Shown here: positions 1 through 16,056 of the stretch, piece after piece
Layout of the letters: every line of letters starts with the position of its first letter
Numbering within the stretch: the first letter of the stretch is position 1
Origin: Patescibacteria group bacterium
Lineage (GTDB): Bacteria; Patescibacteriota; Patescibacteriia; UBA1558; GWA2-36-10
Assembly: GCA_041665545.1 (NCBI GenBank)
Contig: JBAYIQ010000002.1
Coordinates: 66,369 to 130,368, forward strand
Direction: 5' to 3'
DNA length: 64,000 nt
Notes under the pieces: model-generated
Told to the model about the DNA's origin: nothing
Databases searched by the model: none
What the model saw: only the letters and a program-made list of their open reading frames with translations
Translations under genes and position numbers: made by a program

Positions 1-2304
1 AAAGGGACCCATGAACATAATGTACAAACGCAAAGAGTCAGCGCCATATTTTTTTATATAGTCATCCGGATTGACGACATTACCGCGTGACTTGGACATT
101 TTGACATTGCCCTCACCCAAAATCATGCCATGAGCTGTCCGTTTTTTGTAGGGCTCATCGCCAAGCTCTTTGGGAATGACGCCAATATCATACAAAAATT
201 TAAAAATAAAACGGGAATACAAAAGATGTAGGGTAGTGTGTTCATTGCCACCATTGTACCAGTCCACTGGCAACCAATATTTTATTTTTTTGGGGTCGGC
301 AAGTTGCTTATTATTTTTAGGATCAGTGTAGCGGATAAAATACCAATTTGACCCTGCCCAGTTAGGCATGGTATCAGTTTCTCTTTTGGCTTTTCCCCCA
401 CACTTAGGACACTTAGTGTTGACCCAGTTATCAACTTTAGCCAAAGGTGACTGCCCGTTTAAGCCGGGCTTGAAATCTTTGATATCGGGCAAAACAACTG
501 GCAAATCTTTTTCCGCCACTGCTTGCCAACCACATTTGGCACAATATACCATGGGAATCGGCTCACCCCAGTATCTTTGTCTAGAAAAAATCCAGTCATG
601 CAAGCGATAATTTACTGTGGTCTTGGCTTTGATGTCTTTGATAATGGCCTTAGCACCAGCTTCTATGCTTAAGCCATTATATTTTCCGGAATTATAAAGC
701 ACGCCGTCCCCAGAATAGGCCTGGTCTTCATTTTGATTCAGACGCTCAAACCAAGTATCAAGCTCGGCGCAAGTAAAATTATCATGATTTATATTTTTGG
801 GATCCAGCCAAACAACTTCGTGCTTAGCCAACTCTTCAGCGCTTACTTTTTCCCTTTCTCCACTCTGAAGTTCAAACAAAATCGCATTGGTGTAGGCAAT
901 TCTATTTTCATTTTTATGGGCCGCGTAATATTCTCCTCGAACTTTGTCTCCCAAAATTTTTATTAATTTTATTTTTTTATAGCCCGTTTCTTCCAACACT
1001 TCTCGGCGAGCGGCTTCAACTATATCCTCACCTTGATCAACACCGCCAACCACAAAACCAGTCCAAGGATGCTCTTTCCACTTCAAGCATAATACTTGAC
1101 CAGTTTTTGGATCACGAACAATGGCGTGAATAGTATCGCGAGTTACGGTTTTTTTACCAGGTTGTGGTGGATTTTTTTTATCCACCCAGTTTGGAATAAT
1201 TACCGTTCTAATCGGCAACTTAAATTTCTTGGCAAACTCCCAATCTCGCTCATCATGAGCTGGAACGGCCATAATAGCTCCAGTGCCATAGCCAGTGGTT
1301 ACATAGTCAGCCACAAAAATTGGAATAGCTTCATTGTTGCTTGGATTGATGGCTTTCAGGCCCTTTATTTCCACGCCGGTTTTTTCACGAGTAGCATCTG
1401 ATCTTTCTAAATCTGATTTCTTACGGCTAGCTTCAATGTATTTTTTTACCTCAGCTAAATTTTCAATCTTATTTTCAAGATCGTGAATCAAAGAATGCTC
1501 CGGCGCTATAACCATAAAAGTCGCCCCAAATAAAGTGTCAGGTCTAGTCGTAAAAACTAATAACTCACTATCTACTTTTAACTTTAAACTTTTAACTTTA
1601 AACTTTATCTCCGCTCCCTCACTGCGTCCAATCCAATTTTTCTGCTGTGTTTTGATTTGCTCCAAAAAATCCACTCTATCCAAATCCTCAATCAAACGAT
1701 CAGCATACTTAGTAATCCTGAGTAACCATTGTTCTTTTTCTTTTTTTTCAACCAAAGTGCCACAACGTTCGCAAGTGCCGTTTGTTACTTCTTCATTGGC
1801 TAAGCCAATCTGGCAAGAGGGACACCAATTAATATTTTCCTTGGCTTTGTAGGCCAAACCCTTTTTCCAAAGCTGAACAAAAATCCACTGTGTCCAGCGA
1901 TAATATTCTGGATCAGTGGTGGACAAAAATCTAGACCAGTCAAAACTAAAACCAGACGCTTGTAATTGACGGATGTAGTTAGCGATATTTTTTTTGGTAG
2001 TCTCCTGAGGGGGGATATTTTTTTTGACGGCATAATTTTCGGCTGGCAAGCCAAAAGCATCCATGCCCATGGGAAATAAAACATTTTTTCCTTGTAGTCT
2101 TTGATAGCGGCAAACAACATCAAGAGCCGTAAAGGGACGCAAGTGTCCGGCATGCAAACCCTCGCCTGAGGGGTAGGGAAATTCCACCAGACCAAAAAAT
2201 TTTTCTTGGCCGCTATCTTTGGCTAAAAAAGTATTATTGTACTGCCAATATTTTTGCCATCGGCTTTCAATATTTTTGAACTGATATTTTGAAAATTTAC
2301 CCAT
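1..2304 (-). CDS. leuS: Leucyl-tRNA synthetase, N-terminal about 768 aa (runs off the window start). It carries an inserted Nudix hydrolase domain of about 140 aa.
   Basis: Reverse-strand translation from ATG (complement 2302-2304) reads MGKFSKYQ...[16 protein letters not shown] (HIGH-type motif), TTRPDT...[13 protein letters not shown] (CP1 editing domain) and [19 protein letters not shown]...VKMSKSRGN (KMSKS). Between AVPAHD...KLPIRTVI and YNSGKYNGL lies a perfect Nudix box [23 protein letters not shown]. The six-frame track does not list this gene because the ORF is open at the window edge. Confidence 0.9.
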
Positions 2305-2479: not shown

Positions 2480-3811
2480 TTGGCTATTAATATAGCTGAT
2501 TTTTTGATTTGGCTGAAAAAGCGCCTGCCTTTTATATTTGGGCCATTATTTAAACTTGTCTCATTGATCTTGAAAATACTTTTTTTGCCCTTGGTTTTGT
2601 TGGTCTACAAAAATATTGTTTTGCTAAAAATAAAAATAAAAAATCACCAATTCAAAAGTCAAAGCATTGTTTTGTTTATAAAAAAATATCTAGCTGGAAC
2701 AGTCATTAGCTTGATCATTGTCGGCACTACAGCCAGTAACATTTTTGCCCAAAGCTTCAACACTGATGAATATGCTCAGCGCACACTACTTTCTACTTTG
2801 ATAAGCAACGACGAATCCACTTGGAGCGAGATCATTGAGGAAAAAGCCCCCATCAATAGACAAGCACCAGCTTTGAGCTACGTTTCCAATCAAGACACCT
2901 TACAAGAGCCACTGACCAACAACAACGATGGTAGTACTGGTGGAGAAATAATCGGCCTATCACCTGATGCTACTAGCTTGGTAATGCTCAATTCTGATGA
3001 AAACAGCTTGGAAATGCCAGCACCAACGCGTTCAGAAAATGTTGACTATCTTGTGCAGGCCGGTGATACCTTGAGCGGCATTGCCGAAAAATTTGATATC
3101 ACAGTGAACACAATACTTTGGGCTAATAATCTTACCTGGAATAGTACTATCAAGCCGGGTGCTAAATTAACTATTTTGCCAACCTCGGGTATTGACTATG
3201 ATATTGTCAAAGGTGATAACCTGACAGCGATTGCCAAAAAATACCAAGCTAATGTTGATAAGATAATTGCCTACAATAATCTGTCTGGCATATCCGACAT
3301 CAAAGCCGGCGACATGATTTTTATTCCTGAGGGTATCAAACCAACAAAAGTCGTTTCTTCTTACAAAGCGCCTACTGTGACCAGCAAGCCAAAAACTGAC
3401 GCTGGAGTTTATAGAGATGATGATCTACCACCAGCTAGCGACTTGTCTGTCAACACCAAATTTTTATGGCCAGTTTTGAGTCACCGTACTACCCAGTATT
3501 TTAGCTGGCGCCACACGGGATTGGATATTGGCGACAAAGTAGGCAACCCAATTTATGCGGCTGAAGATGGCAAAGTCGAACGCTCTGGCTGGTCAACTGG
3601 CTACGGCTATAATGTGATTATCAATCATGGCAACGGCCTAGAAACACTATATGGCCACGCCAGTCAACTCTTGGTCAAAGCTGGGGAGACAGTCAGTCGC
3701 GGTCAGGTCATAGCGCTGGTTGGCAATACTGGCTGGTCCACTGGCCCGCACTTGCATCTTGAAGTGCGAGTCAATGGTGTCAGAAAAAATCCTATTAACT
3801 ATATAAAATAA
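2480..3811 (+). CDS. Membrane-anchored cell-wall hydrolase with two LysM domains and a C-terminal M23 (LytM-type) peptidase domain
   Basis: N-terminal hydrophobic segment. Two LysM-like repeats (DYLVQAGDTLSGIAEKFDITVNTILWANNL and DYDIVKGDNLTAIAKKYQANVDKIIAYNNL). M23 signature HTGLDIG...HGNGLETLYGHAS...GPHLHLEVR. Confidence 0.8.
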   Translation: MAINIADFLIWLKKRLPFIFGPLFKLVSLILKILFLPLVLLVYKNIVLLKIKIKNHQFKSQSIVLFIKKYLAGTVISLIIVGTTASNIFAQSFNTDEYAQRTLLSTLISNDESTWSEIIEEKAPINRQAPALSYVSNQDTLQEPLTNNNDGSTGGEIIGLSPDATSLVMLNSDENSLEMPAPTRSENVDYLVQAGDTLSGIAEKFDITVNTILWANNLTWNSTIKPGAKLTILPTSGIDYDIVKGDNLTAIAKKYQANVDKIIAYNNLSGISDIKAGDMIFIPEGIKPTKVVSSYKAPTVTSKPKTDAGVYRDDDLPPASDLSVNTKFLWPVLSHRTTQYFSWRHTGLDIGDKVGNPIYAAEDGKVERSGWSTGYGYNVIINHGNGLETLYGHASQLLVKAGETVSRGQVIALVGNTGWSTGPHLHLEVRVNGVRKNPINYIK

Positions 3812-3924: not shown

Positions 3925-5715
3925 TTATTTGCAAAAACACTTCCAGCGTGCGCCACGATCACTATCATTTTGTCCACAGCTCAGCTGTCCGCCAGCTAAT
4001 CCGCCCGCCTGACAAGTCGCTAGATCAGACCACGCCTCAGTACCAAAACCGGCATAACCACGAGAGGTAATCGCCTTTGTGTCGACACACTGTTTTTTTA
4101 TAGACGCACAATAAGCATTGCAACTATCAAAATTATCTAAACTCACGCAAGCTGACCAGGCACCAATGGTAGATTTTCCTTTACCGAAAATATTATAACC
4201 ATTATAATATTCCGTAAAATCATTGTGACCATCACCATCTGTATCGGCTTTTTTGGGATCAGTGCCCAATAAGTTTTCATTATCATCACTCAGGCCATCA
4301 CCTTCACCATCACCATCAGTATCTTTATTATTTTGCTCTTCGTATTGCTTCATTGTGCGTACTTTCTCCTCCATTATTTTCTTCATGGTATTTTCATAAG
4401 CTTGCTGTACAGTAATAGTTTGCTCTGGTTTGGTAATTGAATAATTATCTTCAATTTCATTTAAAAAATTATAATGGCCGGTTAAAATTATTTTTTCCTC
4501 ACCAAGATTTATGGTGTCGCCGTCAAAAACAATACTGGCACCCTGGATAGCTTTGGTTTTGGTGTTGACCCAGACAAAAATATCCGCATTTTGAACCAAG
4601 CTATCGATTGCTTCAAATTGTTTGGGGTCATCAATTCTATCTTTGGCCATGTCTTTTTCCACCTTGGCCTTAATATCTTGGGTGGTTTTCAGTTCAGTAT
4701 TATTCAAATAAGCACCATCAAAAATAGCCAGCATATTAATCAAATCATCAATTTTTGAAGGCTTAACAATAAGTTGTAACTTTTTTAACTGACCATTACC
4801 GCTGTCTTTTGATTCTTTGGTGTCGGTAATTTTAAAAATATCATAAAGCTTAAAGAGCTTAAAATAATCATCCATTTTCTTTCTTTCTTCCAGCTTTTTT
4901 TCTAGATTAAAATTAACTGGATTGACCATAAGCCCGACATCAGAACTACTTAATTTATCAAGATCATCCCAATTATAGGTTAGCCAGCGATCTTTATTGA
5001 AAAATTCTGACAAATCAATATTCATACCCAGCAAGCCACTCAACAAATCAGTAGTAAAATCCTTGTTAAATTTAAAATAGAAATCCTTGTCGAGCTGTCT
5101 ATAATCAATGCTGTTATTGAAATTGAAAGCACTTCCCGCTCCAATACTTATCTGTACATTACCATCAAAATTTTTACCAACAGTGTGTTGCAATCCTGTC
5201 AAAGAAATTTTGACGTTGTCCATGCTGGGCATAAACATTTCCGCCGGGTTACTACCCAAGTTGCCAATAACCGGGTCTTTTTTTAACCGACCATCCAAGA
5301 TAAAATCAAAATCCGATTTATAATTTTCATAAGGAACATCTAGTTTCAAAACCATCTGTCTAGCAAAAAGCATGGTTTGACCATAAGCATAGTACCAATA
5401 GCCACCAGCTCCCAAAATGACTACTAGCAAACTCATCAAAATAAAGCTCGTAGTCTTTTTGTTTGATTTTTTGGGAGAAATAGGAGAAATATTTTGCTGG
5501 CCAGGTTTTTGCCCTAGGTTAGAATTCACCGAAGCTTGACCAGGCATCATGGGACTCAGCGGTCTTGGCGTTGGCTGACTCACTGCTTGGGCTGGTGTCG
5601 GTGGCGTGGCTGGAATTTTCATACTAGGCGGATTACCACTGGCCGTACCCGGCATGGTCTTGACCTGAATATCATTGATTACAAAATCATCTTTTTTTGT
5701 TTGAGGAGTGTCCAT
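3925..5715 (-). CDS. Membrane-anchored protein with a Pro-rich N-terminus, one TM segment, thrombospondin-type-3-like DxDxDG calcium-binding repeats and a Cys-rich C-terminal domain
   Basis: 596-aa ORF. Hydrophobic segment LMSLLVVILGAGGYWYY. Repeats TDGDGEGDGLSDDNENLLGTDPKKADTDGDGHNDF. C-terminal Cys pattern CVSLDNFDSCNAYC...CQAGG...SCGQ...CFCK. Confidence 0.5.
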   Translation of the reverse strand: MDTPQTKKDDFVINDIQVKTMPGTASGNPPSMKIPATPPTPAQAVSQPTPRPLSPMMPGQASVNSNLGQKPGQQNISPISPKKSNKKTTSFILMSLLVVILGAGGYWYYAYGQTMLFARQMVLKLDVPYENYKSDFDFILDGRLKKDPVIGNLGSNPAEMFMPSMDNVKISLTGLQHTVGKNFDGNVQISIGAGSAFNFNNSIDYRQLDKDFYFKFNKDFTTDLLSGLLGMNIDLSEFFNKDRWLTYNWDDLDKLSSSDVGLMVNPVNFNLEKKLEERKKMDDYFKLFKLYDIFKITDTKESKDSGNGQLKKLQLIVKPSKIDDLINMLAIFDGAYLNNTELKTTQDIKAKVEKDMAKDRIDDPKQFEAIDSLVQNADIFVWVNTKTKAIQGASIVFDGDTINLGEEKIILTGHYNFLNEIEDNYSITKPEQTITVQQAYENTMKKIMEEKVRTMKQYEEQNNKDTDGDGEGDGLSDDNENLLGTDPKKADTDGDGHNDFTEYYNGYNIFGKGKSTIGAWSACVSLDNFDSCNAYCASIKKQCVDTKAITSRGYAGFGTEAWSDLATCQAGGLAGGQLSCGQNDSDRGARWKCFCK

Positions 5716-6978: not shown

Positions 6979-7053
6979 TGGTGCCCCCGATAGGAGTCGA
7001 ACCTATACCCCAAGCTCCGGAAGCTTGTATTCTATCCGTTGAACTACGGGAGC
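6979..7053 (-). tRNA. tRNA-Arg (anticodon CCG)
   Basis: Reverse complement gctcccgtagttcaacggatagaatacaagcttccggagcttggggtataggttcgactcctatcgggggcacca. 7-bp acceptor stem, anticodon loop TTCCGGA, TPsiC loop TTCGACT, CCA encoded. Confidence 0.85.
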
Positions 7054-7192
7054 AAATTAAAATCGGACATAAAAACAGTATAACACTTTATATAGTATGT
7101 TCAAATTTTGACCAAAAAGAAACCCCCGCCAGTGGTCCCATTGGACTTAGCGGGGGCGAGCAGACGAATCTGCTTAGTTCTGAAATGTGCGT

Positions 7193-7870
7193 CTAGCAAT
7201 CGGAACTGGGATGATAGTCGATGATCTCGGCCAGGCGGAAGCCAACATGGACTTTCCGGCACCACGGCCACATCCGATCCCAGTACTCGTGACAGAGTTC
7301 GGTCAGGACCTGGCGCTGACGGCGGAGCTTTGCCAGCTCCTCGGGCACTTCGTTGACCTGCTTGGTCAACGCCTCCACCTGAGCTCGCAGGTCATCGTTC
7401 ACACCCTGCAGGCGGACATTGTCCGCGAGCAACTGCTGCCACGACGTACCATCCTGAGGACCCTCATAGCTATCCTCAGGGAGAGGGCGGATACTGCCGA
7501 CCTTGATCTGATGAAAGAGCTCACACAGATCATCGAGGTTCTTGGCGGTCAACTTGATGCACAGGCAATTATTTTTGCCCGAGCTTTCCGGACTCACCTC
7601 CGCCCGAGCGGTCTTGAGCCGGTAGACACCCCACTCACGAGCGTTGTAGACTGGGACAAACTCGATCACACTGATCTCCTCGACGACGCCTTTCAACACT
7701 TTCGGTATCTGATCACCGAGATTGATCTTGGTATACCAGCGGCCATCGTCCAGGTAAAGAGTGATGCCTTGGTCCGGAATACCCCTCTTGGGACTTCCGT
7801 CACCGTTCTTTAGATCCGCGAAGCCTGTCACGTTCTTGACTTCGTCGCTCAAATACACTCGTCCTGACAT
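7193..7870 (-). CDS. Hypothetical protein encoded in a GC-rich (about 58 % GC) islet next to tRNA-Arg, probably horizontally acquired
   Basis: ORF 7193..7888. The likely start is the second Met (MSGRVYLSDEV...), preceded by gaaggag. The C-terminal half is coiled-coil-like (LRAQVEALTKQVNEVPEELAKLRRQRQ). Composition contrasts sharply with the flanking AT-rich DNA. The opposite-strand ORF 7187..7813 is judged to be antisense. Confidence 0.5.
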   Translation of the reverse strand: MSGRVYLSDEVKNVTGFADLKNGDGSPKRGIPDQGITLYLDDGRWYTKINLGDQIPKVLKGVVEEISVIEFVPVYNAREWGVYRLKTARAEVSPESSGKNNCLCIKLTAKNLDDLCELFHQIKVGSIRPLPEDSYEGPQDGTSWQQLLADNVRLQGVNDDLRAQVEALTKQVNEVPEELAKLRRQRQVLTELCHEYWDRMWPWCRKVHVGFRLAEIIDYHPSSDC

Positions 7871-8069
7871 GTCTAACTCCTTCTTCATTGTCGCCCGGAT
7901 TCCGCCTAGCTTACTGGGCCAGTACGTTCCGTGGTCGACTGCTTGGAGCTTCTTGCCACCTTACCAGCATTACTGGCAAAGTATATAATAATAGCATATA
8001 TAATGATTTTTGTCAACAATAAAACAGTCATATTTTACGGCTGTTTTTTACAAAAATTTAACGAAAAAC

Positions 8070-9419
8070 CTACTTATTTAACAAAGTATAAAGCAAACCC
8101 AAGGCCGAAGTGGCCATCAAAACAAAAGTGAACCAGACCAAACTACGCGATAATTTGTTACCACTATAGTCACCTAATATTTTTTTATTGCCATTGATCT
8201 TGGCAATGACAAATATCAAAGGCACAGCCGCAAGGCCATTGAACACGGCGGTGAACACCAAGGCCTTAAATGGATTGATGCCAATAAAATTCATCAGTAA
8301 GCCAACCAAGGTGGCAATAATTATCACGGCATAAAAACCCTTGGCCTGACTCAATTTTCTATACAAACCCTCTTTCCAGCCCAGGGCTTCAGAGAGCGCA
8401 TAGGCCGCGGATCCTGCCAAGACTGGTATGCCCAAAAGACCAAGGCCGATAATACCAATAGCAAAAATATCTTTGGCAATTTGTCCAGAATTGGGAAATG
8501 ACTGCACTAGTGGCTCTAGGGCTTTGGCCGCGTCAGCCGCTGAGTTGATATCGGTAATTCCGTTTTTGAATAAAACCGAAGCCGTGGTAATGATGATAAA
8601 CCACTGAGCTAGTTGGGACCACAACATACCAACAGAAGTATCAACTCTCATATCATGGAGAAATTTTTTCAAGCCATGCGGTGTGCCACCTTTTTGTGGT
8701 AAATTGTGATGAGCAATCTCCTCCTCCACTTCTTCCGAGGCCTGCCAAAAAAACATGTAAGGCGTAATGGTGGTACCAAAAACACCGGTGATGATAAATA
8801 AATATTCAAAATCAAATTTTATACTTGGTATAAATGTGGCTTTGATAATCTCTCCCCAAGAATGATCGACAATCAAAGCCGTAAAAATATAGGCCACCAA
8901 AACCAAGGCCAGCCACTTCAAAAATTTGACATATTTTTTGTAACTCACAAAAACTTCTAAAGCCACAATCAAAATCGCAAAAGCAATAGCGTAAAAGGCA
9001 AAAGGTAAATTCCAAACCAGTTCCGCGGCACTAGCTATGGCGCCAATATCTGCTCCGATGTTTATGGTGTTGGCAATGACTACTAAAAAAACTACCACCA
9101 ACAATACTTTTTTGGAAAAATTTTCTTTGACCACGCCCGCCAAGCCCTTGCCAGTGACTGCACCAATACGCGCGCAAGTTTCCTGAATAGCAATCAAAAG
9201 TGGAATCTGATAAAAAGCCGTCCAGAGCATGCCAAAGCCAAATTGGGCACCAGTCTGCGAGTAAGTGGCAATGCCCGAAGGATCATCATCAGCCGCGCCA
9301 GTAATCAAACCCGGGCCTAAAATGCGAAAAAAACGATTGAGCTTGTTTGGCTTTTTGCTTGATAAATTTTTATTTATTTTTTTATCTTCAATCATAAAAA
9401 TAATCTTTATTATACACAA
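8070..9419 (-). CDS. mntH: NRAMP-family divalent metal (Mn2+/Fe2+) transporter
   Basis: GPGLITGAADDDPSGIATYSQTGAQFGFGMLW motif typical of Nramp/MntH. About 11 TM segments. 449 aa. Confidence 0.8.
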   Translation of the reverse strand: MCIIKIIFMIEDKKINKNLSSKKPNKLNRFFRILGPGLITGAADDDPSGIATYSQTGAQFGFGMLWTAFYQIPLLIAIQETCARIGAVTGKGLAGVVKENFSKKVLLVVVFLVVIANTINIGADIGAIASAAELVWNLPFAFYAIAFAILIVALEVFVSYKKYVKFLKWLALVLVAYIFTALIVDHSWGEIIKATFIPSIKFDFEYLFIITGVFGTTITPYMFFWQASEEVEEEIAHHNLPQKGGTPHGLKKFLHDMRVDTSVGMLWSQLAQWFIIITTASVLFKNGITDINSAADAAKALEPLVQSFPNSGQIAKDIFAIGIIGLGLLGIPVLAGSAAYALSEALGWKEGLYRKLSQAKGFYAVIIIATLVGLLMNFIGINPFKALVFTAVFNGLAAVPLIFVIAKINGNKKILGDYSGNKLSRSLVWFTFVLMATSALGLLYTLLNK

Positions 9420-9483
9420 ATAGTACCATAATAAGGAAAATTTGTGAAAATAAAAAATCAGCCCTTAGGACTGTTTTTTATCT

Positions 9484-9573
9484 TGGCGGTGGGAGGAGGA
9501 TTCGAACCCCCGATACCCTTGCGAGTATACCGCATTTCGAGTGCGGCGCCTTCAACCACTCAGCCATCCCACC
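9484..9573 (-). tRNA. tRNA-Ser (anticodon CGA), class II with long variable arm
   Basis: Reverse complement ggtgggatggctgagtggttgaaggcgccgcactcgaaatgcggtatactcgcaagggtatcgggggttcgaatcctcctcccaccgcca. Anticodon loop CTCGAAA. Long extra arm. CCA encoded. Confidence 0.8.
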
Positions 9574-9719
9574 AAGGAACTTTAATCTAAATTATCTTAA
9601 GAATATTGAATTTTGCTTGTAAAGTCAAATACTATACCCTATAATAACCCCAGTGGACTGTCTTTGCTTTAAACACTCACCAGACAGTCTTTGTACCAAC
9701 GCAACCTTAAGGAGAAGGT

Positions 9720-10190
9720 ATGCTACTGCGCGTGACTACCCACGGCCAACGCGTCATCTATCATGTTGTGAGTGCCACCCCATCCTATGAGGAGACCCGA
9801 ATCACTCTGCCGGCAGGCACCTACAATTTCCGAGATCACCCCAATCCTCTAAGATCGGATTGGGGCAAATGGCTGGTACTCGATGAATCAGAGCTACCGA
9901 AGCTAGGACTTGACTCTGATGCCATTGTTGGCATGAGTCACGAAGCCTTGATGTTCTGTGGTAGCCCTGCTTGTATCTCTAGCATGGCGATGGATATCGA
10001 AGACATCACACCGGTCATGGCTACTGTTCAGTCGGTGGTCACTGCCGAAGTGAAGACAGCGAAAATCATCCCCCTACCCGTTCGTCGCTATCCCGAGTTC
10101 ACGCGGAATGACCAGCCAAGAGGTCTCTACTGTGCCAGTCGCCACAGAAGATTCCTCAATCCAGCGGCTCGCCGCGAATGCCACGGCTGA
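9720..10190 (+). CDS. Hypothetical protein in a GC-rich islet (about 55 % GC) downstream of tRNA-Ser
   Basis: 156-aa ORF preceded by ttaaggagaaggt-ATG (strong SD). Followed by a canonical intrinsic terminator. No recognisable domain. Confidence 0.5.
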   Translation: MLLRVTTHGQRVIYHVVSATPSYEETRITLPAGTYNFRDHPNPLRSDWGKWLVLDESELPKLGLDSDAIVGMSHEALMFCGSPACISSMAMDIEDITPVMATVQSVVTAEVKTAKIIPLPVRRYPEFTRNDQPRGLYCASRHRRFLNPAARRECHG

Positions 10191-10216
10191 AAAGCCAACC
10201 TCCTTCTCCTGTCCAT

Positions 10217-10256
10217 GGCCACCGAAGACTTTAATCGGTGGCCTTTCTTTTTTTTA
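10217..10256 (+). terminator. Rho-independent terminator (ggccaccga-loop-tcggtggcc followed by a T-run)
   Basis: 9-bp perfect stem followed by tttctttttttt, immediately after the stop of the 9720..10190 ORF. Confidence 0.75.
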
Positions 10257-10330
10257 ACAAAAAAAATAGCCCGCCTGACTATAATAAAATTTTACCAAAT
10301 GGCCGAAGGCCATGAGCGAAGTTTTATGCC

Positions 10331-10385
10331 CCTCGACTTGGTTCGACTACGCTCACCACAAGTCGCTCAGGGCACTCGATTCATT
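10331..10385. repeat. Copy 2 of the about 50 bp cctcgacttggttcgact.cgctcaccaca repeat (see 6838-6890)
   Basis: Direct sequence comparison. Confidence 0.6.
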
Positions 10386-10460
10386 TACAGAAAATGGTCA
10401 AAGGGTTGATAAGCACCGGAGACCACGAGTGAGTCTTTTGCTTTGCAAAAGACGAATCGA

Positions 10461-10605
10461 GTGGTGCCGAAGGGGAGATTTGCCACCGCCCGCAGGCGGG
10501 GTCCCGCCCGTGGCGGGAAACTCCCATAAAATTTTATTGGTGCCGAAGAGAGGATTTGCCACCGCCTACGGCGGGGTCCCGCTTCGCGGGAAACCAATTT
10601 TTGTT
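10461..10605. repeat. Two tandem units, each a 20-nt copy of the tRNA-Leu 3' end (tggtgccgaagggg/agagagatttg) fused to a GC hairpin repeat (ccaccgcc-N-ggcggggtcccgcc-N-gcgggaaac). They abut the genuine tRNA-Leu 3' end.
   Basis: tggtgccgaagg..gatttg occurs at 10461, 10538 and 10606. Only the last continues into a full tRNA. The first two continue into gccaccgcc..ggcggggtcccgc..gcgggaaac. Confidence 0.7.
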
Positions 10606-10693
10606 TGGTGCCGAAGGGGAGATTTGAACTCCCACGATCTTGCGATCACATGGCTCTGAACCATGCGTGTCTACCAAGTTTCACCACTTCGGC
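10606..10693 (-). tRNA. tRNA-Leu (anticodon CAG), class II
   Basis: Reverse complement gccgaagtggtgaaacttggtagacacgcatggttcagagccatgtgatcgcaagatcgtgggagttcaaatctccccttcggcacca. Anticodon loop TTCAGAG, long variable arm, CCA encoded. Confidence 0.8.
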
Positions 10694-10735
10694 CTAAATA
10701 ATTAAAAATAATACCACTTTTAAATACAATTGGTG

Positions 10736-10762
10736 GACCGTGTCCCGCGACGCGGGACGACC
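10736..10762. repeat. GC hairpin gtcccgcgacgcgggac just 3' of tRNA-Ala (terminator-like, member of the cccgc-N4-gcggg family)
   Basis: Perfect 7-bp palindrome with a 3-4 nt loop. Confidence 0.5.
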
Positions 10763-10798
10763 TCCTATGAAAATGCCTGACACTCTCCTAATTTTGTT

Positions 10799-10872
10799 TG
10801 GTGGAGATGCGGGGAATTGAACCCCGAATTGGTCAATGCGAATGACCTGTTATACCGTTTAACTACATCCCC
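10799..10872 (-). tRNA. tRNA-Ala (anticodon CGC)
   Basis: Reverse complement ggggatgtagttaaacggtataacaggtcattcgcattgaccaattcggggttcaattccccgcatctccacca. G3:U70 pair in the acceptor stem (Ala identity). Anticodon loop TTCGCAT. CCA encoded. Confidence 0.8.
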
Positions 10873-11040
10873 CTAAATTTTGCCAACTGCTTGCCCTCCG
10901 AAGTCCGAAGGACGTAGGAGGGAGCTAACGGCCCTGAACTATTCGTCGCTTCGCTCCTAGAGTTTCGGGGCCTAAGCCCCATAACTTTCAAGCGAGCAAA
11001 ATAATTATAACTGGCTGCGTCAACCGAAGCTCCGAAGGAG

Positions 11041-11110
11041 CGAAGGTTGGTCGGGGTGGCGGGACTTGCCACCGCCTATGGCGGGGTCCCGCCCGCGGCG
11101 GGAAACCCAC
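11041..11110. repeat. Hairpin repeat unit (gacttgccaccgcctatggcggggtcccgcccgcggcgggaaaccc) preceded by a duplicated tRNA-Pro 3'-end fragment (ggtcggggtg)
   Basis: Same architecture as the units at 10461-10605. ggtcggggtg recurs at the real tRNA-Pro 3' end at 11151. Confidence 0.6.
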
Positions 11111-11149
11111 CAAAACTTTAACTAAATTTATTACTTTTATTTTGAAGAA

Positions 11150-11225
11150 TGGTCGGGGTGATCAGACTCGAACTGACGACCTCGGCGTCCCGAACGCCGC
11201 GCGCTACCAACTGCGCCACACCCCG
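11150..11225 (-). tRNA. tRNA-Pro (anticodon CGG)
   Basis: Reverse complement cggggtgtggcgcagttggtagcgcgcggcgttcgggacgccgaggtcgtcagttcgagtctgatcaccccgacca. Anticodon loop TTCGGGA. CCA encoded. Confidence 0.8.
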
Positions 11226-11479
11226 CCTACGCCAAGGCTTCGGCGGGCTTATAGCCCGTTAGCATTGACATACTTTATATTCAAACTTCTTGTCCTCCAA
11301 AGCTTTAGCGACGGAGGACATCACACTACTCCTCCTCGCTTCACTCGTCGTCGAGTTCACGGCACTGCCGTTTAGATAATTCTAGCAAATCCGACGGTTT
11401 TACTCAATAAAAAATCACCTTATAAGTGACGCTGTATAATACAATAAATAAACAATTTTGTAAATAAATATCTCCGACT

Positions 11480-11941
11480 TTATTTATTCAGAAAAAAATT
11501 AGCTAACAAATGAAAAGTAACAATTTTTGACATAAACAAAGCACCCAGCACAATTAACACTGCACCAAAAGCCGCGCTCCAAGTAAATTTTTCACCTAAA
11601 AAAATTATGGCCAAAACAAAAACAAAAACAATGCTCAGGCGATCAATGGCTGAGGCAGTCGAAGCTTGACCTTTTTGAATAGCATAAAAATAAAACAACC
11701 AAGACAGAGCTCCGGCAATACCACTCAAAAAAATAAAGAGTAGTGCTTTACCTTCTATGGTGTGTAGCAATGATGTTTTTTTCAAAGATAAAGAAACCAA
11801 AACCAAAAAGACAGCCATAATCACTGACCGCACTGTTGTAGCCAAAGTGCTATCAATATTTTTTAAGCCGATTTTACCAAAAATCGCAACTAGGGCTGCA
11901 AAGACGGCTGATAATAAAGCATAAATTATCCAAAGTGGCAT
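11480..11941 (-). CDS. Small DMT-superfamily (EamA-like) membrane transporter, half-size (4-5 TM)
   Basis: 153 aa, very hydrophobic. EamA-like segment FGKIGLKNIDSTLATTVRSVIMAVFLVL, and the C-terminal half repeats the pattern. Confidence 0.45.
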   Translation of the reverse strand: MPLWIIYALLSAVFAALVAIFGKIGLKNIDSTLATTVRSVIMAVFLVLVSLSLKKTSLLHTIEGKALLFIFLSGIAGALSWLFYFYAIQKGQASTASAIDRLSIVFVFVLAIIFLGEKFTWSAAFGAVLIVLGALFMSKIVTFHLLANFFLNK

Positions 11942-11959
11942 ATTTATTTTTTTAATTAA

Positions 11960-11998
11960 TTATTGGAGCAGGTGATCCCGCCGTTGGCGGGACGATCT
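11960..11998. repeat. GC hairpin gatcccgccgttggcgggacgatc (hairpin-repeat family), upstream of the EamA-like gene
   Basis: cccgcc-gttg-gcggg palindrome with extended gatc arms. Confidence 0.5.
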
Positions 11999-12045
11999 CT
12001 TGCCCCGCCTTGCCGAAGCCAATGCTCTTATTTAACATAATAATG

Positions 12046-12121
12046 TGGAGCGAGAGACGGGACTCGAACCCGCGATCTCTTCCTTGGGAAGGAAGCATTC
12101 TACCAGCTGAACTACTCTCGC
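12046..12121 (-). tRNA. tRNA-Gly (anticodon CCC)
   Basis: Reverse complement gcgagagtagttcagctggtagaatgcttccttcccaaggaagagatcgcgggttcgagtcccgtctctcgctcca. Anticodon loop TTCCCAA, discriminator U, CCA encoded. Confidence 0.8.
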
Positions 12122-12149
12122 ACAACCTTAAGTATTTTTAATTTTTAAT

Positions 12150-12197
12150 ACTGCCACGGCGAGGCAGGTTGGGAAGCAAGCATTCTACCAACTGAAC
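12150..12197 (-). pseudogene. Truncated tRNA-Gly-like fragment (acceptor 5' strand, D arm, anticodon 5' stem and loop only)
   Basis: Reverse complement gcgggcatagttcagttggtagaatgcttgcttcccaac matches the 5' half of the adjacent tRNA-Gly. The downstream sequence cannot complete the anticodon stem or T arm. Confidence 0.55.
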
Positions 12198-12209
12198 TAT
12201 GCCCGCCAA

Positions 12210-14798
12210 TTAATGACTAGCCGTCACTATCTTTTTACCAGAATGCGCCGCTATATCAAAATCGTATTTTTTATAAAATATCCTTTTACCAATTTCTACA
12301 AAGACAAAATATACCAGCACAATCAAGACAATAGCCATGACCATGGCCAGGGGTGGTCTCCCAAATTGAAAGTATCTACCTACCGCCGTAAATGGTATTA
12401 TCCAACCCAAAGTCACGCAAGTCAAGGTACTAAACAATAAATATTTACTGGGCCGACTCTGGATAAATGGTAATTTCTTAGTCCTGATGAAATGAATAAC
12501 CAAAGTCTGAGTGGCTAGGGATTCCATAAACCAACCAGCTTGAAATACGGATTGGCTAGCGTGAAAAACACTGTACAAAACATAAAAAGTCAAAAAGTCA
12601 AAAATTGAACTAATGGGTCCAATCCACAACATGAAGCGTTTGATAAATTGCATGTTCCAACGACGCGGTTTCTGCAGCCAATCTTGGTCAACGTTGTCAG
12701 TCGGTATGGTCACCTGCGAAAAATCATAAATAAAATTATTCAACAAAATTTGAATTGGCAACATCGGCAAAAAAGGCACAAAAAATACCACCAAACTCAT
12801 GCTAAACATATTGCCAAAATTGGAACTCAAACCCATCATGATGTATTTCATGGTATTGCCAAAGGCCTTCCGACCTTCCAACAAACCATCTTTCAAAATC
12901 TCCAAATTTTTGTGCGTCAAAACAATATCCGCTGACTCTTTGGCCACATCCACCGCGTTGTTGACGGAAATGCCAACATCAGCGGCTTTGAGCGATGGCG
13001 CGTCATTGATGCCGTCACCCAAATAGCCAACCACGTGGCCATTGGCCCGCAAAGCAGTGATCACTCTGTTTTTTTGCTCTGGAGAAAATCTGGCAAAAAT
13101 GGTTGTTTTCTCAACTATGGCTCCCAAAGCATCATCATTCAAATGCTCCATTTCACTGCCCATGATAGTGCCATGTACGGTCAAACCGACTTCACGACAA
13201 ATTTTGCTAGCCACCAATTCATTGTCCCCAGTAATAACTTTGACGCGCACTCCCACATTGCGCAATTCTTCCAAAACTTGCTTCAAGCCCCGACGTGGCG
13301 GATCAAGAAAAGCCACAAAACCGCAGAGCTCCAAATCATTTTCGTCTTGCTTGCTGTATGACTTTTTTTTATTATCAAATTTTTTGATAGCCACAGCCAA
13401 AACACGATAGCCATCTTTACTCAAATTTTCATAATACTCATGGGCCTTCTTTTGCCAAACTTTCCCAAAATGTATGGCTTTTTTCCCTTGCTGAAAAGTC
13501 TGGCATTTTTTAAAAATTTCTTCGGGCGCACCCTTGGTGATTAATAGTCTACCCTCTTCCCCTTCAACCACCACGCTCATCAAACGCCTGTTAAAATCAA
13601 AAGGTATTTCATCAATTTTTTTATACTTGGTAGTTGCTATTTTTTTGAAATTAACAATAGCTTCATCAAGCGGATTTTTGACTCCGGTTTGGAAATAGCC
13701 GTTGAGATAAGTGTATTTCAAAACCTGCTCGTTATTTTCACCAGCCAAATTTGTGTAAGTCACCAAAACAATTTTGTCCTCCGTCAAAGTGCCAGTTTTG
13801 TCAGTGCACAAAATATCCATGCTACCAAAATTTGGAATGGCCGTTAATTTTTTGACAATTACTCCTTTCTTAGACATCTTCAAGGAGCCACGAGCCATAG
13901 TGATAGACATGATCATGGGCAACAACTCTGGTGTCACACCCACAGCTACTGCAATAGCAAACATGAATGATTCCAAGATACGGTGGTTGATCAGGGAGTT
14001 AAACAAAAAAATAAAGAGCACCAAAAAAATGATTATCTTCATTATGAAATAACCAAATTTTGTGACCCCAATTTCAAATTCACTCTTCTCTTCTTTTTTG
14101 GCTAATTTGTCGGCTATTTGTCCAAATTCAGTTTGGTTACCAATTTTGACCACCACGGCTGTGGCCGAACCACTGACTACACTAGTACCGGCAAAAATTA
14201 TATTATTCAAATCTACCAAAGATAAATTCTGACCACGCAAAATCTTTTTGTCTTTGCCATTGGGGTAGGACTCTCCAGTCAAAGACGACTGATTCACATA
14301 AAGATCTTTGGAGTCAATGATGCGCGCGTCAGCCGGCACTAATTTTCCAGCGCTGACACAAACGATATCACCAATACATATTTGAGAGGCCTTAACTTCT
14401 TTTTTCTGACCATCACGAATGACTGTAGCCATGGTGCGCACTTTTTCTTTTAGACGCTTGGCAGCTTGTCCGGCATTTCGCTCCTCAAAAAAATCCAAAA
14501 TCACACTCAGTAGTATCATAACCGCCACAATGACAGCATTTTTTATTTCACCCAAATAGGCCGAGATAGCTGATACTATCAACAAAATGATTATCAGCGG
14601 ACTTTTGAAATACGAAAGAAACTCCAAAACAACATTGCGCTCTTTTCTTTCTTCAATGGTGTTGTAACCACAGGTGGCATGGCGTTTCAGAGTTGTACTT
14701 TCTGACAATCCCTTTTCACTGCTGTCTACCAAGGACAAAACTTCAGGCGCCTCAAGCGTGGCAAAATATTCTAGTTTTTTATCTAAGACGTCTTTCAT
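12210..14798 (-). CDS. mgtA: P-type cation-transporting ATPase, MgtA-like (probable Mg2+ importer)
   Basis: 862 aa. DKTGTLT phosphorylation motif, TGES, GDGINDAPSLKAADVGISV hinge motif, 10 TM segments. The overall layout resembles Mg2+-ATPases, but ion specificity is an inference. Confidence 0.8.
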   Translation of the reverse strand: MKDVLDKKLEYFATLEAPEVLSLVDSSEKGLSESTTLKRHATCGYNTIEERKERNVVLEFLSYFKSPLIIILLIVSAISAYLGEIKNAVIVAVMILLSVILDFFEERNAGQAAKRLKEKVRTMATVIRDGQKKEVKASQICIGDIVCVSAGKLVPADARIIDSKDLYVNQSSLTGESYPNGKDKKILRGQNLSLVDLNNIIFAGTSVVSGSATAVVVKIGNQTEFGQIADKLAKKEEKSEFEIGVTKFGYFIMKIIIFLVLFIFLFNSLINHRILESFMFAIAVAVGVTPELLPMIMSITMARGSLKMSKKGVIVKKLTAIPNFGSMDILCTDKTGTLTEDKIVLVTYTNLAGENNEQVLKYTYLNGYFQTGVKNPLDEAIVNFKKIATTKYKKIDEIPFDFNRRLMSVVVEGEEGRLLITKGAPEEIFKKCQTFQQGKKAIHFGKVWQKKAHEYYENLSKDGYRVLAVAIKKFDNKKKSYSKQDENDLELCGFVAFLDPPRRGLKQVLEELRNVGVRVKVITGDNELVASKICREVGLTVHGTIMGSEMEHLNDDALGAIVEKTTIFARFSPEQKNRVITALRANGHVVGYLGDGINDAPSLKAADVGISVNNAVDVAKESADIVLTHKNLEILKDGLLEGRKAFGNTMKYIMMGLSSNFGNMFSMSLVVFFVPFLPMLPIQILLNNFIYDFSQVTIPTDNVDQDWLQKPRRWNMQFIKRFMLWIGPISSIFDFLTFYVLYSVFHASQSVFQAGWFMESLATQTLVIHFIRTKKLPFIQSRPSKYLLFSTLTCVTLGWIIPFTAVGRYFQFGRPPLAMVMAIVLIVLVYFVFVEIGKRIFYKKYDFDIAAHSGKKIVTASH

Positions 14799-14835
14799 GG
14801 CTGGCTTAATTTTAGCATATTCACTTAAAAATAAA

Positions 14836-14963
14836 AAACCGCCGACACTTTTGGGTCATGATCCACACAATACTTTAATTTCATACTACGGTGTGGATTC
14901 CCGCCTACGCCCGCTTCGCCGCGAGGCGAGCGGGAATGACAATAAAAAAGTCGGCGGTTTTTT
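14836..14963. repeat. Nested palindromic element. Outer arms are aaaaaaccgccgac / gtcggcggtttttt, middle arms ccacac / gtgtgg, inner arms attcccgcctacgcccgcttcgccgcgaggcgagcgggaat. It lies between the ATPase and the glycosyltransferase.
   Basis: Inverted repeats read directly. Same gtgtgg-attcccgc...gcgggaat-gac family as at 3845, 33300, 37783 and 39487. Confidence 0.6.
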
Positions 14964-14989
14964 CCAAAAAAGAAAGCGAGGTTTTTTAT

Positions 14990-15781
14990 TTACTTAAATA
15001 TTGTCTCTAACAATTTAGCAGTGAGTTTTAAGGGATAATATAAAATATTATTTTTATAATGTTTATCTAAAACATAGCCATATGAGGTGAACATATAACG
15101 ATTGCGGCTGGAAGATGGCAGACCGACATGCAAAACCTTAATAGCTGGGTCGTACATTACTTTTGCTTTATTTTGTCTGGCTCTTAAACATAGCTCTAAT
15201 TCTTCATAGTATAAAAATATTTTATCATCAAAGCCGTGTAATTCATCAAAAATATTTCTTTCGATTAAAAAAACGGCTCCCGACACCCAAGCCGCCTCAA
15301 TCACTTTATTTTGCGGTCTCCAAAAAGATATTCCAATCGATCCAAGCAAGCGAGCTAATAGACTATGCAATTCGCCATAATCCCAAGCTTGTTGTCGCCC
15401 ATTTTTATTAACTAATTTTGGACCGACAATTTTTACTGAGCTATCTGACAAAAAACAATCCAGCATTCTGCTGATTGTTTTTTCTTCGATAAACAAAATA
15501 TCAGGATTAAGAATCAATAAATATTTAGCATCAATCTTTTTGGCTAAAATATTGTGTCCACCACCAAAACCAACATTTTTGTTATTTTTATAAAATTCAA
15601 TTTGATTATGTTGTTTGTATTTTAATTGCAAATCGCCCAAATCGTCAGATGAGTCATTATCTAAAATCAATATTTTATAGGATATATTTGAATTTTTTAG
15701 ATCTTTCAAAATAGAATCCAAACATCCGACCAAATATTTTTTGGTATTATAGTTTACTATTTGAATGGATAAATCAAACAT
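14990..15781 (-). CDS. Family 2 glycosyltransferase (GT-A fold)
   Basis: MFDLSIQIVNYNTKKYLVGCLDSIL...ILILDNDSSDD...ILNPDILF (DxD-type motifs). The track ORF extends upstream through a GC-rich repeat. The start is placed at the Met of MFDLSIQIV (complement 15779-15781). Confidence 0.7.
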   Translation of the reverse strand: MFDLSIQIVNYNTKKYLVGCLDSILKDLKNSNISYKILILDNDSSDDLGDLQLKYKQHNQIEFYKNNKNVGFGGGHNILAKKIDAKYLLILNPDILFIEEKTISRMLDCFLSDSSVKIVGPKLVNKNGRQQAWDYGELHSLLARLLGSIGISFWRPQNKVIEAAWVSGAVFLIERNIFDELHGFDDKIFLYYEELELCLRARQNKAKVMYDPAIKVLHVGLPSSSRNRYMFTSYGYVLDKHYKNNILYYPLKLTAKLLETIFK

Positions 15782-15789
15782 AATTGAAT

Positions 15790-15890
15790 TAATTGGTCGT
15801 CCCGCTGGGACTCGCCACCGCCTCCCATTCGGGCCTGAGCCCTCAGGGCCGAAGGCTGGCGGGGTCCCGCCCACGGCGGGAAACCCGTCA
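15790..15890. repeat. Hairpin-repeat unit carrying an internal insertion (gactcgccaccgcc-tcccattcgggcctgagccctcagggccgaagg-ctggcggggtcccgcccacggcgggaaaccc)
   Basis: Same ccaccgcc ... ggcggggtcccgcc..ggcgggaaac cores as 10478-10527 and 11063-11109. The extra inner hairpin is gggcctgag-ccc-tcagggcc. Confidence 0.6.
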
Positions 15891-15946
15891 CACCCCCACT
15901 TTACCTGCCCGCCGAACTAAGCACTAAAATTATTTTATTAAAAAGT

Positions 15947-16030
15947 ATGGTGGGTATACCTGGACTTGAACCAGGGACCCCGACTTTATCCTCCTGCGCC
16001 TCGCTACTCTCGGCTACGGAGGACAGGTAA
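15947..16030 (-). pseudogene. Partial duplicate of tRNA-Ile: anticodon stem through the 3' end, with a 38-nt insertion in the anticodon loop. It lacks the acceptor 5' strand and D arm.
   Basis: Reverse complement cgactctta[cctgtcctccgtagccgagagtagcgaggcgcaggagga]taaagtcggggtccctggttcaagtccaggtatacccacca parallels the 3' two-thirds of the neighbouring tRNA-Ile. No 5' half is present upstream. Confidence 0.5.
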
Positions 16031-16056
16031 GAGTCGTGTTTATATGTATCCGCCGC

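Follow-up and report, generated by a model that had tools for sequence, protein, structure and literature searches.

A Nudix hydrolase domain nested within the CP1 editing domain of a patescibacterial leucyl-tRNA synthetase

What is a Nudix hydrolase domain doing inside a leucyl-tRNA synthetase (LeuRS)? Few enzymes are as conserved as the aminoacyl-tRNA synthetases, and extra catalytic domains are rare in the bacterial ones. The question is raised by the leuS gene at one edge of a stretch of 64,000 nucleotides from Patescibacteria group bacterium (assembly GCA_041665545.1, contig JBAYIQ010000002.1, positions 66,369 to 130,368; this whole 64-kb stretch is called the window below), where a LeuRS with a Nudix module nested in its proofreading domain is encoded in one frame. 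The original prediction, made from the letters of the window alone, had claimed that a Nudix domain with a textbook box is fused in frame within this LeuRS, and the claim has been confirmed by domain search, structure prediction and structure comparison. The features on which this rests are as follows.

1..2304, minus strand: leuS, partial, 768 codons from the ATG at 2304 (TIGR00396, Foldseek and the 92%-identical homologue P0001)
724..1197, minus strand: nested Nudix module, aa 370-527 (Pfam, structure alignment, AlphaFold, Foldseek and dN/dS)
979..1047, minus strand: Nudix box, G420-Y442, of the canonical Gx5Ex7REUxEExGU pattern
901..930, minus strand: subfamily signature, aa 459-468, an aromatic pair followed by HK-x2-NR

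Positions 2304 to 1 of the minus strand form a single open frame of 768 codons that begins with an ATG and meets no stop up to the window edge (from stop to stop, the frame covers 1-2337 of that strand), and all protein strings quoted in the original prediction are found in it. Within this frame, the Pfam family PF00293 (NUDIX) matches aa 389-505 (nt 790-1140) with an E value of 1.7e-14 and 54.4 bits, where the gathering score is 21.1. For aa 370-536, an AlphaFold model based on 117 aligned sequences reaches a mean pLDDT of 95 and a pTM of 0.88 and has the strand-helix-strand order of Nudix proteins, with the first and last residues as short strands that form a stalk; in the model of all 768 residues (pLDDT 90.4, pTM 0.83), the insert is at 93-97 and both junctions are at 89-97. 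When the insert was compared with the PDB by Foldseek, 475 matches were obtained at E<=0.001, the best 50 of which are all Nudix proteins, and its neighbours include 2azw, E. coli RppH, NUDT15, MutT1, ADP-ribose pyrophosphatase and Ap4A hydrolases at 15-24% identity. Structure prediction had been proposed earlier as a check on whether the Nudix fold is a separate lobe, and in the models the module does fold as a self-contained lobe that is carried on a stalk of two strands.

The place of the insert is defined by comparison with LeuRS enzymes that do not have it. Residues 2-362 of Thermus thermophilus LeuRS pair with residues 5-369 of the query and residues 370-593 pair with 523-744, so that about 150 residues replace the seven-residue Thermus loop 363-369. 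In insert-less relatives, the module is represented by a loop of about eight residues, EGGDLEVE, and the spacing between the anchors PIRTVI and YNSG is 167 residues here versus 18 in insert-less close relatives, a difference of about 149 residues that refines the earlier estimate of about 140. The original prediction had placed the insert after the exit from the editing domain; this has to be corrected, as the insertion point is within the CP1 editing domain and native CP1 sequence, aligned to Thermus RAYEEPGIMVNSG, resumes after it. The residues at the insert junctions are ordinary LeuRS sequence. Alignment and model together indicate that a surface beta-hairpin of CP1 has been opened to take in a complete Nudix pyrophosphohydrolase.

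When the 64-kb window is translated in six frames, the strict Nudix-box pattern occurs a single time among the open reading frames (ORFs) of 50 aa or more, and a hidden Markov model (HMM) of the insert matches this ORF alone within the window. Located 17-18 residues past the box is the aromatic pair Y459/Y460, which opens the subfamily signature [FY][FY]AAHK[DN]ENR that is also present in free-standing homologues. In an alignment of 117 sequences that includes free-standing relatives (in insert numbering, to which 369 is added for protein numbering), R20, G52, R65, E66, E69, E70, G72, K95 and W130 are invariant, E57 is 99% conserved, and E57, N98, R99, E122, W45 and others are at or above 90%; within the signature, K95 is invariant, N98 is kept in 97%, R99 in 99% and H94 in 88%. 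Conserved basic residues outside the box are R389, K410, K464 and R468 in protein numbering, and the domain as a whole is net acidic (mean net charge -5.3). The catalytic residues of the box stay invariant among LeuRS-embedded inserts that are just 35-50% identical. All metal-binding and catalytic residues of the box are thus kept, and the hydrolase is apparently active. Between the window and its closest relative, the locus L085, which encodes P0001, dN/dS is 0.022 for the insert (35 synonymous and 4 non-synonymous differences) versus 0.077 for the LeuRS core, a comparison that indicates stronger purifying selection on the Nudix module than on the synthetase core.

The synthetase around the module is divided into four further parts.

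1642..2304, minus strand: catalytic Rossmann core, N-terminal half, aa 1-221 (PF00133), with the HIGH motif and zinc knuckle
1198..1641, minus strand: CP1 editing domain, N-terminal part, aa 222-369 (PF13603)
607..723, minus strand: CP1 editing domain, C-terminal part, aa 528-566, aligned to T. thermophilus RAYEEPGIMVNSG and kept in insert-less relatives
1..606, minus strand: catalytic core, C-terminal half, aa 567-768, with RQRYWG and KMSKS (motif search, structure-sequence alignment and 121-homologue alignment)

The NCBIfam model TIGR00396 (leuS_bact) matches the ORF in two separate stretches with an E value of 1.3e-241 and 804 bits versus a cut-off of 548.4, despite both truncation and interruption. 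The truncation is caused by the window edge, which leaves about 196 C-terminal residues, including the anticodon-binding domain, outside, as gauged from the 964-aa homologue P0001 (92% identical), in which the anticodon-binding family PF08264 is found. In Pfam, the class I core PF00133 matches aa 14-225, and the LeuRS editing domain PF13603 matches aa 222-375 with E 2e-61, over profile positions 1-146 of 185 only. The HIGH motif is HAGH (aa 51-54, nt 2143-2154) and is accompanied in the N-terminal half of the core by a CxxC...CxxC zinc knuckle; the T-rich motif of the editing site is TTRPDT (aa 252-257, nt 1534-1551), its catalytic aspartate is D354 (nt 1243-1245), which we take to correspond to D345 of E. 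coli LeuRS, and KMSKS is at aa 735-739 (nt 88-102). In an alignment of 121 LeuRS homologues, H51, G53, H54, C161, C178 and C181 are invariant, as are T253, R254, D256, T257, D351 and D354; HIGH and KMSKS are invariant or nearly so whether the insert is present or absent, and the zinc-knuckle cysteines, TTRPDT and D354 are invariant with or without it. Foldseek of the whole 768-aa model retrieves bacterial LeuRS structures at a TMq of 0.70-0.72. Alignment to the solved structures reveals no leucine-specific domain of the Thermus/E. coli kind in this LeuRS, which rules out the case, raised in the original prediction, that the Nudix-like string is part of such a domain. Judged by its conserved residues, the ORF encodes a normal bacterial-type LeuRS with complete synthetic and CP1 editing sites.

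The architecture is found well beyond this genome, in hundreds of uncultured patescibacterial lineages. A segment of 158-168 residues stands at exactly this site in 107 of the 120 best homologues, and 104 of those 107 keep the strict Nudix box. When one genome per GTDB species was scanned, for which the counts are those of the matches listed, a Nudix box within a LeuRS ORF was present in at least 42 species-representative genomes with a GC content of 27-60%, which bears out the check for a same-site insert in orthologues that had been proposed earlier. Among the 42 matches listed, the box is placed about 80-90 residues past PxHDxxD and ahead of RQRYWG in 39, where RQRYWG, if found, is usually about 140 residues beyond the box, and at a second site ahead of the editing domain in two. 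In their records, nearly all of the listed genomes carry the label Patescibacteria, Parcubacteria, Paceibacterota or 'Saccharibacteria'; a few labels, which are unverified, are Woesearchaeota, Pacearchaeota, Bacilli, Clostridium and Gammaproteobacteria, and the named protein matches include Komeilibacteria, Moraniibacteria and Vogelbacteria. Three loci labelled as Woesearchaeota/Pacearchaeota archaeon (L023, L031 and L033) encode a bacterial-type LeuRS with a nested Nudix domain, and such cases in DPANN-labelled metagenome-assembled genomes (MAGs) reflect either mislabelled bins or transfer between the candidate phyla radiation (CPR) and DPANN.

With this distribution, the possibility that the architecture is an artefact, whether a frameshift, an overlapping gene, a chimeric assembly or a string that resembles a Nudix box by chance, has virtually no probability left and is already refuted. 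The ORF is a single one of 768 codons with a significant Pfam match and high model confidence across the junctions, and independent assemblies repeat the same junctions in 107 homologues, as do the at least 42 species-representative genomes. A frameshift or a separate overlapping gene, the other case raised by the original prediction, is ruled out by the same single ORF and by the recurrence of its architecture in 107 of the 120 best homologues. The GC content of the insert (0.399) is also close to that of the core (0.406), and GC3 differs modestly (0.31 versus 0.40); composition was considered as evidence of a recent foreign origin and was set aside with these values.

To delineate the subfamily of the nested domain, 1.84 billion cluster representatives (50%-identity clusters) were searched exhaustively with HMMER, which returned 415 matches at E<=1e-3 and 199 at E<=1e-10. 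The closest 149 were classified: 104 are LeuRS or LeuRS fragments, 36 are short proteins (84-251 aa) without LeuRS similarity that mostly look free-standing, the shortest of which may be fragments, and the other nine comprise six LeuRS fragments or unassigned sequences, two tandem Nudix proteins without LeuRS (P0209 and P0224) and one prolyl-tRNA synthetase (ProRS), P0240. By these counts, the subfamily is preferentially tied to synthetases. The precomputed Pfam strings of public homologue records already list PF00293. The sources mostly name the Nudix-bearing LeuRS (that of the window and P0004, P0006, P0011, P0019 and P0049) 'class I tRNA ligase family protein', and less frequently 'leucine--tRNA ligase' or 'leucyl-tRNA synthetase'; this demotion occurs presumably because the insert disturbs the scoring of family models.

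Free-standing members of about 160 aa (P0122, P0147, L014 and L018) share the N-terminal strand, the box and the signature with the nested domain at 35-49% identity and differ from it in being separate genes and in not having the C-terminal helix AELDxWxxR that is found in most LeuRS-embedded copies. P0122 (160 aa, 48% identical) is a separate gene between unrelated genes, P0147 and P0154 are free-standing at 48-49% identity, and L014 and L018 are 35-37% identical by alignment and 41-44% across the tblastn match. In addition to the HK-x2-NR signature, L014, L018 and P0147 share an N-terminal stretch, 'IPxFxD..NP..K..VER', that resembles a linker in the LeuRS context; because the free-standing proteins also have this stretch, it was a whole Nudix protein that was inserted. 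These likenesses show that the nested Nudix domain derives from a free-standing Nudix family of about 160 aa. In four free-standing relatives of 154-190 aa (P0154, P0213, P0262 and P0263), the box has decayed (Gx5E to Q, RE to ME or AE) and the signature is partly kept, with PK/LT-x2-NR instead of HK-x2-NR; such box-degenerate relatives may be non-catalytic.

The same subfamily has also been found in another synthetase. In P0240, aa 398-515 are a Nudix domain that is 36% identical and carries FYAVHKDVNR, inserted between the anticodon-binding and C-terminal domains of an archaeal-type class II ProRS. Five Nudix-bearing ProRS were found in all (P0240 and P0279-P0282), with closest named relatives labelled Nanoarchaeota/Woesearchaeota (DPANN), and the box is partly degenerate in four of the five. 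These proteins are thus like the LeuRS of the window in their Nudix subfamily and unlike it in the class II, archaeal-type host and in the place of insertion.

Several relatives carry further domains. P0008, P0013, P0016, P0044, P0117, P0130 and P0132 contain two or three Nudix domains, all of this subfamily, with the second insertion site between the catalytic core and CP1, and an ORF at positions 1020-4166 of L046 has four Nudix boxes. In the Nudix-bearing LeuRS P0040, a serine hydrolase/alpha-beta hydrolase (aa 252-413) is placed at the start of CP1, and in P0035 the second half of the catalytic core houses a HAD phosphatase domain (aa 654-808); P0043, P0055, P0068 and P0112 are further Nudix-bearing LeuRS with other nested hydrolase domains.

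Is the Nudix module needed by the synthetase that carries it? Close relatives with and without the module were compared, which delimits one further feature.

610..1224 (approximate), minus strand: presence/absence cassette, the Nudix module with the adjoining C-terminal CP1, aa ~361-565 (sliding-window protein identity and DNA alignments)

In a neighbour-joining tree of the LeuRS core, from which the insert was left out, the query falls in a clade of 17 sequences with 74-93% core identity to it, in which 5 sequences with the module are interleaved with 12 without it. P0005, which has no insert and a core identity of 89%, is sister to the query and P0001, and P0003, which has the insert, is nested among the insert-less P0014, P0015 and P0017. 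Identities of core and insert are discordant, at 65% and 71% in P0006 and at 74% and 42% in P0009. The proteins P0003 and P0014 are 92-100% identical in aa 1-255, 83-97% in aa 251-355 and, for the most part, 87-100% past aa 575. Leaving aside the Nudix module, which just one of the two has, they are only 26% identical in aa 526-555, and the query and P0005 show a like pattern.

The DNA comparisons (window versus L084, and L086 versus L087) concern syntenic loci, which share the gene order LysM/M23 peptidase, leuS, sua5/yciO-family gene, MFS transporter and 16S rRNA adenine dimethyltransferase (RrnaAD-family). The members of each pair are 87-95% identical in DNA; the flanks on both sides are mostly 75-100% identical per window of comparison and about 87-90% overall, and homology is lost solely between leuS nt ~1080 and ~1680 in both pairs. 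The exchange unit therefore consists of the Nudix module and the last ~40 CP1 residues, since homology drops only across that tract. The insert-less alleles have a common homologous short loop, EGGDLEVEAYPALNG, and hence did not arise from the Nudix allele by simple deletion. Co-adaptation of the module with the CP1 helix that follows it was considered and rejected, as distant Nudix-bearing LeuRS such as P0009 keep the long 'KWLGKNKLG' form of the alleles without the module; for this reason, the boundary of the segment at aa 528-565 is read as a recombination tract. Most simply, the cassette would have been moved by homologous recombination between leuS alleles, and LeuRS of this lineage can function without the Nudix module. 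Since syntenic relatives with about 90% DNA identity differ just by the cassette, the module is regarded as accessory and as no part of leucine proofreading. The suggestion of an inserted mobile domain therefore holds in part: a cassette is present or absent between syntenic genomes, and it bears no intein or endonuclease signature, as no intein/Hint splicing motif or homing endonuclease was found and a Pfam scan of the whole ORF returned synthetase and NUDIX families only.

What, then, might the nested enzyme act upon? On balance it is probable that the protein is a bifunctional LeuRS whose accessory Nudix hydrolase likely serves dinucleoside polyphosphates or NTP-type nucleotides. The module would act as an independent hydrolase, apart from amino-acid proofreading, on a nucleotide with a polyphosphate chain; the likeliest substrates would be dinucleoside polyphosphates such as Ap4A, or 'housecleaning' nucleotides of the NTP type, and the tether to an abundant and constitutively expressed translation enzyme would provide hydrolase activity in a tiny genome. 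Synthetases produce Ap4A-type compounds from aminoacyl-AMP and ATP. In aminoacyl-AMP itself, just one phosphate takes part in a mixed anhydride; the compound is no nucleoside diphosphate linked to X and has no pyrophosphate bond of the Nudix type. The lobe is read as a pyrophosphohydrolase and not as a proofreading device because aminoacyl-AMP lacks that bond, the editing site is untouched and relatives without the lobe exist.

Several features hint at the substrate. In ApnA hydrolases, a specificity tyrosine is located in the X-loop downstream of the box, as in Y87 of human NUDT2 (PMC5389931). Y459/Y460 occupy this position and align with HYWY of the Aquifex Ap4A hydrolase, a likeness in which a single aromatic residue is not diagnostic. 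Profile matches to Ap4A hydrolases (1f3y, 4e-7; CT771, 8e-6; 3i7u, 4e-5) are no better than those to ADP-ribose pyrophosphatase, NudB and Dcp2. The lean towards dinucleoside polyphosphates or NTP-like nucleotides rests on the X-loop aromatics, the four basic residues, the acidic surface and the weak similarity to Ap4A hydrolases; the net acidic surface would argue against a large RNA-binding face, and the sequence features are compatible with Ap4A hydrolysis. Assignment to a known Nudix subfamily was attempted with NCBIfam, PDB sequence and profile searches and Foldseek and was rejected, and no substrate class is assignable because all subfamily matches are generic. In NCBIfam, the RppH models (PRK00714) score 28.5 bits versus a required 116, in the box region only, NudI 29 versus 95, NudB 26 versus 103 and ADPRase 15 versus 248, and MutT/8-oxo-dGTPase equivalogs are far under their curated cut-off.

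Several points weigh against the proposed hydrolase of dinucleoside polyphosphates or NTPs. To our knowledge, LeuRS is not among the strongest producers of Ap4A; no curated NCBIfam Nudix subfamily model reaches its cut-off; enzymes of RNA 5' ends (RppH, Dcp2 and AvrM14) are as prominent as ApnA hydrolases among the structural and profile neighbours; and the ProRS-embedded and some free-standing copies have degenerate boxes. In L014 (669-3433, one strand), genes for CYTH, an unassigned ORF, HAD_2 and a low-molecular-weight phosphatase are followed by a Nudix of the subfamily, and this phosphohydrolase setting fits general housecleaning over a synthetase-specific role.

A Nudix gene adjacent to leuS was also considered as a 'Rosetta stone' link and was rejected, as the neighbouring Nudix is of the 'W-TIPKGH' type, is 23-27% identical and has no HK-x2-NR. 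It is found in MAGs labelled Saccharibacteria, Saccharimonadales or Patescibacteria (L067, 303-5230; L056, 107-3600; L069, 7-4723), where an insert-less leuS is followed by nusB and a translationally coupled Nudix of another subfamily, in what is an RNA-processing operon with a Nudix gene. In L067 and L069, rnc (RNase III) comes after the Nudix gene, with rpsP next in L067, and the contig of L056 stops after the Nudix gene.

Because RppH, Dcp2 and AvrM14 are equally close neighbours, an RppH-like enzyme is the main rival to a dinucleoside polyphosphate or NTP hydrolase. Such an enzyme would take pyrophosphate or a nucleotide cap (ppp-, Np4- or NAD-) off RNA 5' ends, with LeuRS as its RNA-proximal carrier, and would thereby set off decay that depends on the 5' end or take part in processing the RNAs that LeuRS encounters; both the activity and this consequence are possible but unlikely. 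E. coli RppH (6vck, 6vcr and 4s2w) is among the best Foldseek matches (E ~2e-7 to 4e-7, TM 0.59-0.63), and the top PDB profile match is AvrM14-A/B (E 1.6e-8), an enzyme that decaps mRNA in vitro, with Dcp2 matching too; there are weak NCBIfam matches to RNA pyrophosphohydrolase models, and the window encodes RNase Y and PNPase and no other Nudix protein. Set against these points, the family models reach 28 of the required 116 bits, the domain is net acidic, and the RppH matches are generic (16-19% identity) and not above those to NUDT15 or MutT1. Nothing puts the Nudix cleft near the tRNA 5' end, and mature tRNA has a 5' monophosphate, which weighs against this activity as well. A role in proofreading, where the Nudix domain would cleave mis-activated aminoacyl-adenylates as a form of pre-transfer editing, had been offered in the original prediction and is now very improbable. 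Its sole support is the location in the editing domain, and it is opposed by a chemistry of aminoacyl-AMP that is unsuited to Nudix enzymes, by a canonical post-transfer editing site that is fully conserved and whose residues are invariant with or without the insert, by the absence of the insert from relatives with 89-100% identical flanking LeuRS sequence and by free-standing homologues outside any synthetase.

A different view starts from the mobility of the module, which could be a conflict or repair cassette whose task is to break down a toxic nucleotide or to mend a modified tRNA end where the CCA docks. Candidate substrates would be toxin-made (p)ppApp or ApnN, a precursor of an antibiotic that mimics aminoacyl-adenylate, or a pyrophosphorylated or ADP-ribosylated tRNA 3' end, and the cassette and these substrates alike are improbable. 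Strain-level presence and absence on near-identical LeuRS with mosaic recombination, the 2-4 Nudix copies in some LeuRS, the independent capture of the same subfamily by a class II ProRS with DPANN-labelled relatives and the placement on the CCA-binding editing domain would all fit. A housekeeping function that can be dispensed with could explain the same polymorphism equally well, the chemistry is purely hypothetical, and neither the window nor the syntenic loci have toxin or defence genes beside leuS. PADLOC-DB gave no significant match (insert PDC-S07, 15.4 bits, E 0.0026; whole protein, none), and membership in a defence system was rejected on that result. The more general claim of a detoxification or repair module that is tethered to translation on the tRNA-CCA-binding domain, against synthetase- or toxin-derived nucleotides or for tRNA ends, is distinctly unlikely. 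If it were true, the polymorphism, the amplification to 2-4 copies and the capture by both LeuRS and ProRS would be signs that episymbiotic cells of ultra-small size are under niche-specific selection or in a conflict that still goes on, and the proteins would form a new class of 'armed' aminoacyl-tRNA synthetases. It is quite improbable that the module is non-catalytic, a nucleotide sensor or a structural or interaction lobe that modulates LeuRS in the manner of NrtR-type regulators. Nudix folds do have non-enzymatic roles (PMC5389931), which counts in favour, and some free-standing and ProRS-embedded relatives no longer have certain box residues; against it are the catalytic Glu and Arg that are invariant in LeuRS-embedded copies whose inserts are 35-50% identical, the dN/dS of 0.022 and close relatives that function without the lobe.

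How does this protein compare with known systems? It shares the class I core, HIGH, KMSKS, zinc knuckle and CP1 motifs with the LeuRS of T. thermophilus (1H3N/2BTE) and E. coli (4AQ7/4ARC), and it differs from the Thermus enzyme, to which it is 38% identical (TMq ~0.7), by a Nudix domain of about 150 aa and by having no leucine-specific domain. The insert is like free-standing Nudix proteins (2AZW, E. coli RppH, Aquifex Ap4A hydrolase 3I7U and AvrM14) in fold, box and X-loop aromatic, and differs from Nudix proteins of the RppH, ApnA-hydrolase and MutT types (16-23% identity) in its own signature, its invariant R20 and W130 and its nesting. The closest analogy is NCBIfam NF040702, an isoleucyl-tRNA synthetase (IleRS) with an N-acetyltransferase domain, which likewise joins a class I synthetase of the Ile/Leu/Val group to a small-molecule-modifying domain; there, the host is IleRS and the guest is GNAT, and the query scores 61 bits versus a cut-off of 1999, over the shared core only. 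As a synthetase with an embedded accessory enzyme, the LeuRS of the window would in principle be comparable to GNAT-containing IleRS. In the full-text literature, no description of a LeuRS-Nudix or synthetase-Nudix architecture was found, which agrees with the earlier view that the architecture is non-standard, and a review of the Nudix clan never mentions tRNA or synthetases (PMC5389931).

Apart from leuS, the window is a segment of a bacterial chromosome with a low GC content (40%) and ordinary housekeeping genes, among them those for IF-2, PNPase, RNase Y, PurA and a P-type ATPase, and no second synthetase or second Nudix gene was found in its 64 kb. Divergent from leuS is a gene for a LysM and peptidase M23 protein (2480-3811, plus strand), which is the same in L084, L085, L086 and L087 (4/4). 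A 596-aa ORF (3925-5715, minus strand) has no Pfam match at E<=1e-5; its N-terminus is rich in proline and its C-terminus in cysteine, and it also has a predicted membrane segment and Asp-rich DTDGDG repeats that resemble thrombospondin type 3; the genes in the same place in L084 and L086 have weak or faint TSP3_bac matches. Seven tRNA genes lie within about 9 kb at 6979-16133 on the minus strand, six of which have a wobble C (Arg-CCG, Ser-CGA, Leu-CAG, Ala-CGC, Pro-CGG and Gly-CCC), and the seventh is a tRNA-Ile with anticodon UAU. This is unusual in bacteria, where AUA is normally decoded by a lysidine-modified CAU tRNA. The adenylosuccinate synthetase ORF (57149-58690, minus strand) has 513 aa, of which residues 28-510 are covered by a Pfam profile of 416 positions, and the roughly 70 residues beyond the profile length suggest an insertion in this enzyme as well.

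A complete second enzyme inside the CP1 proofreading domain is apparently undescribed in the literature, and its occurrence shows the CP1 hairpin to be a natural site at which LeuRS tolerates inserted domains. The natural alleles with and without the Nudix module on near-identical LeuRS backgrounds would provide a testable system, including for the local disposal of Ap4A-type by-products. The finding suggests that, in ultra-small cells that depend on a host, synthetases and nucleotide-pyrophosphate hydrolysis are repeatedly linked in function or for reasons of economy.

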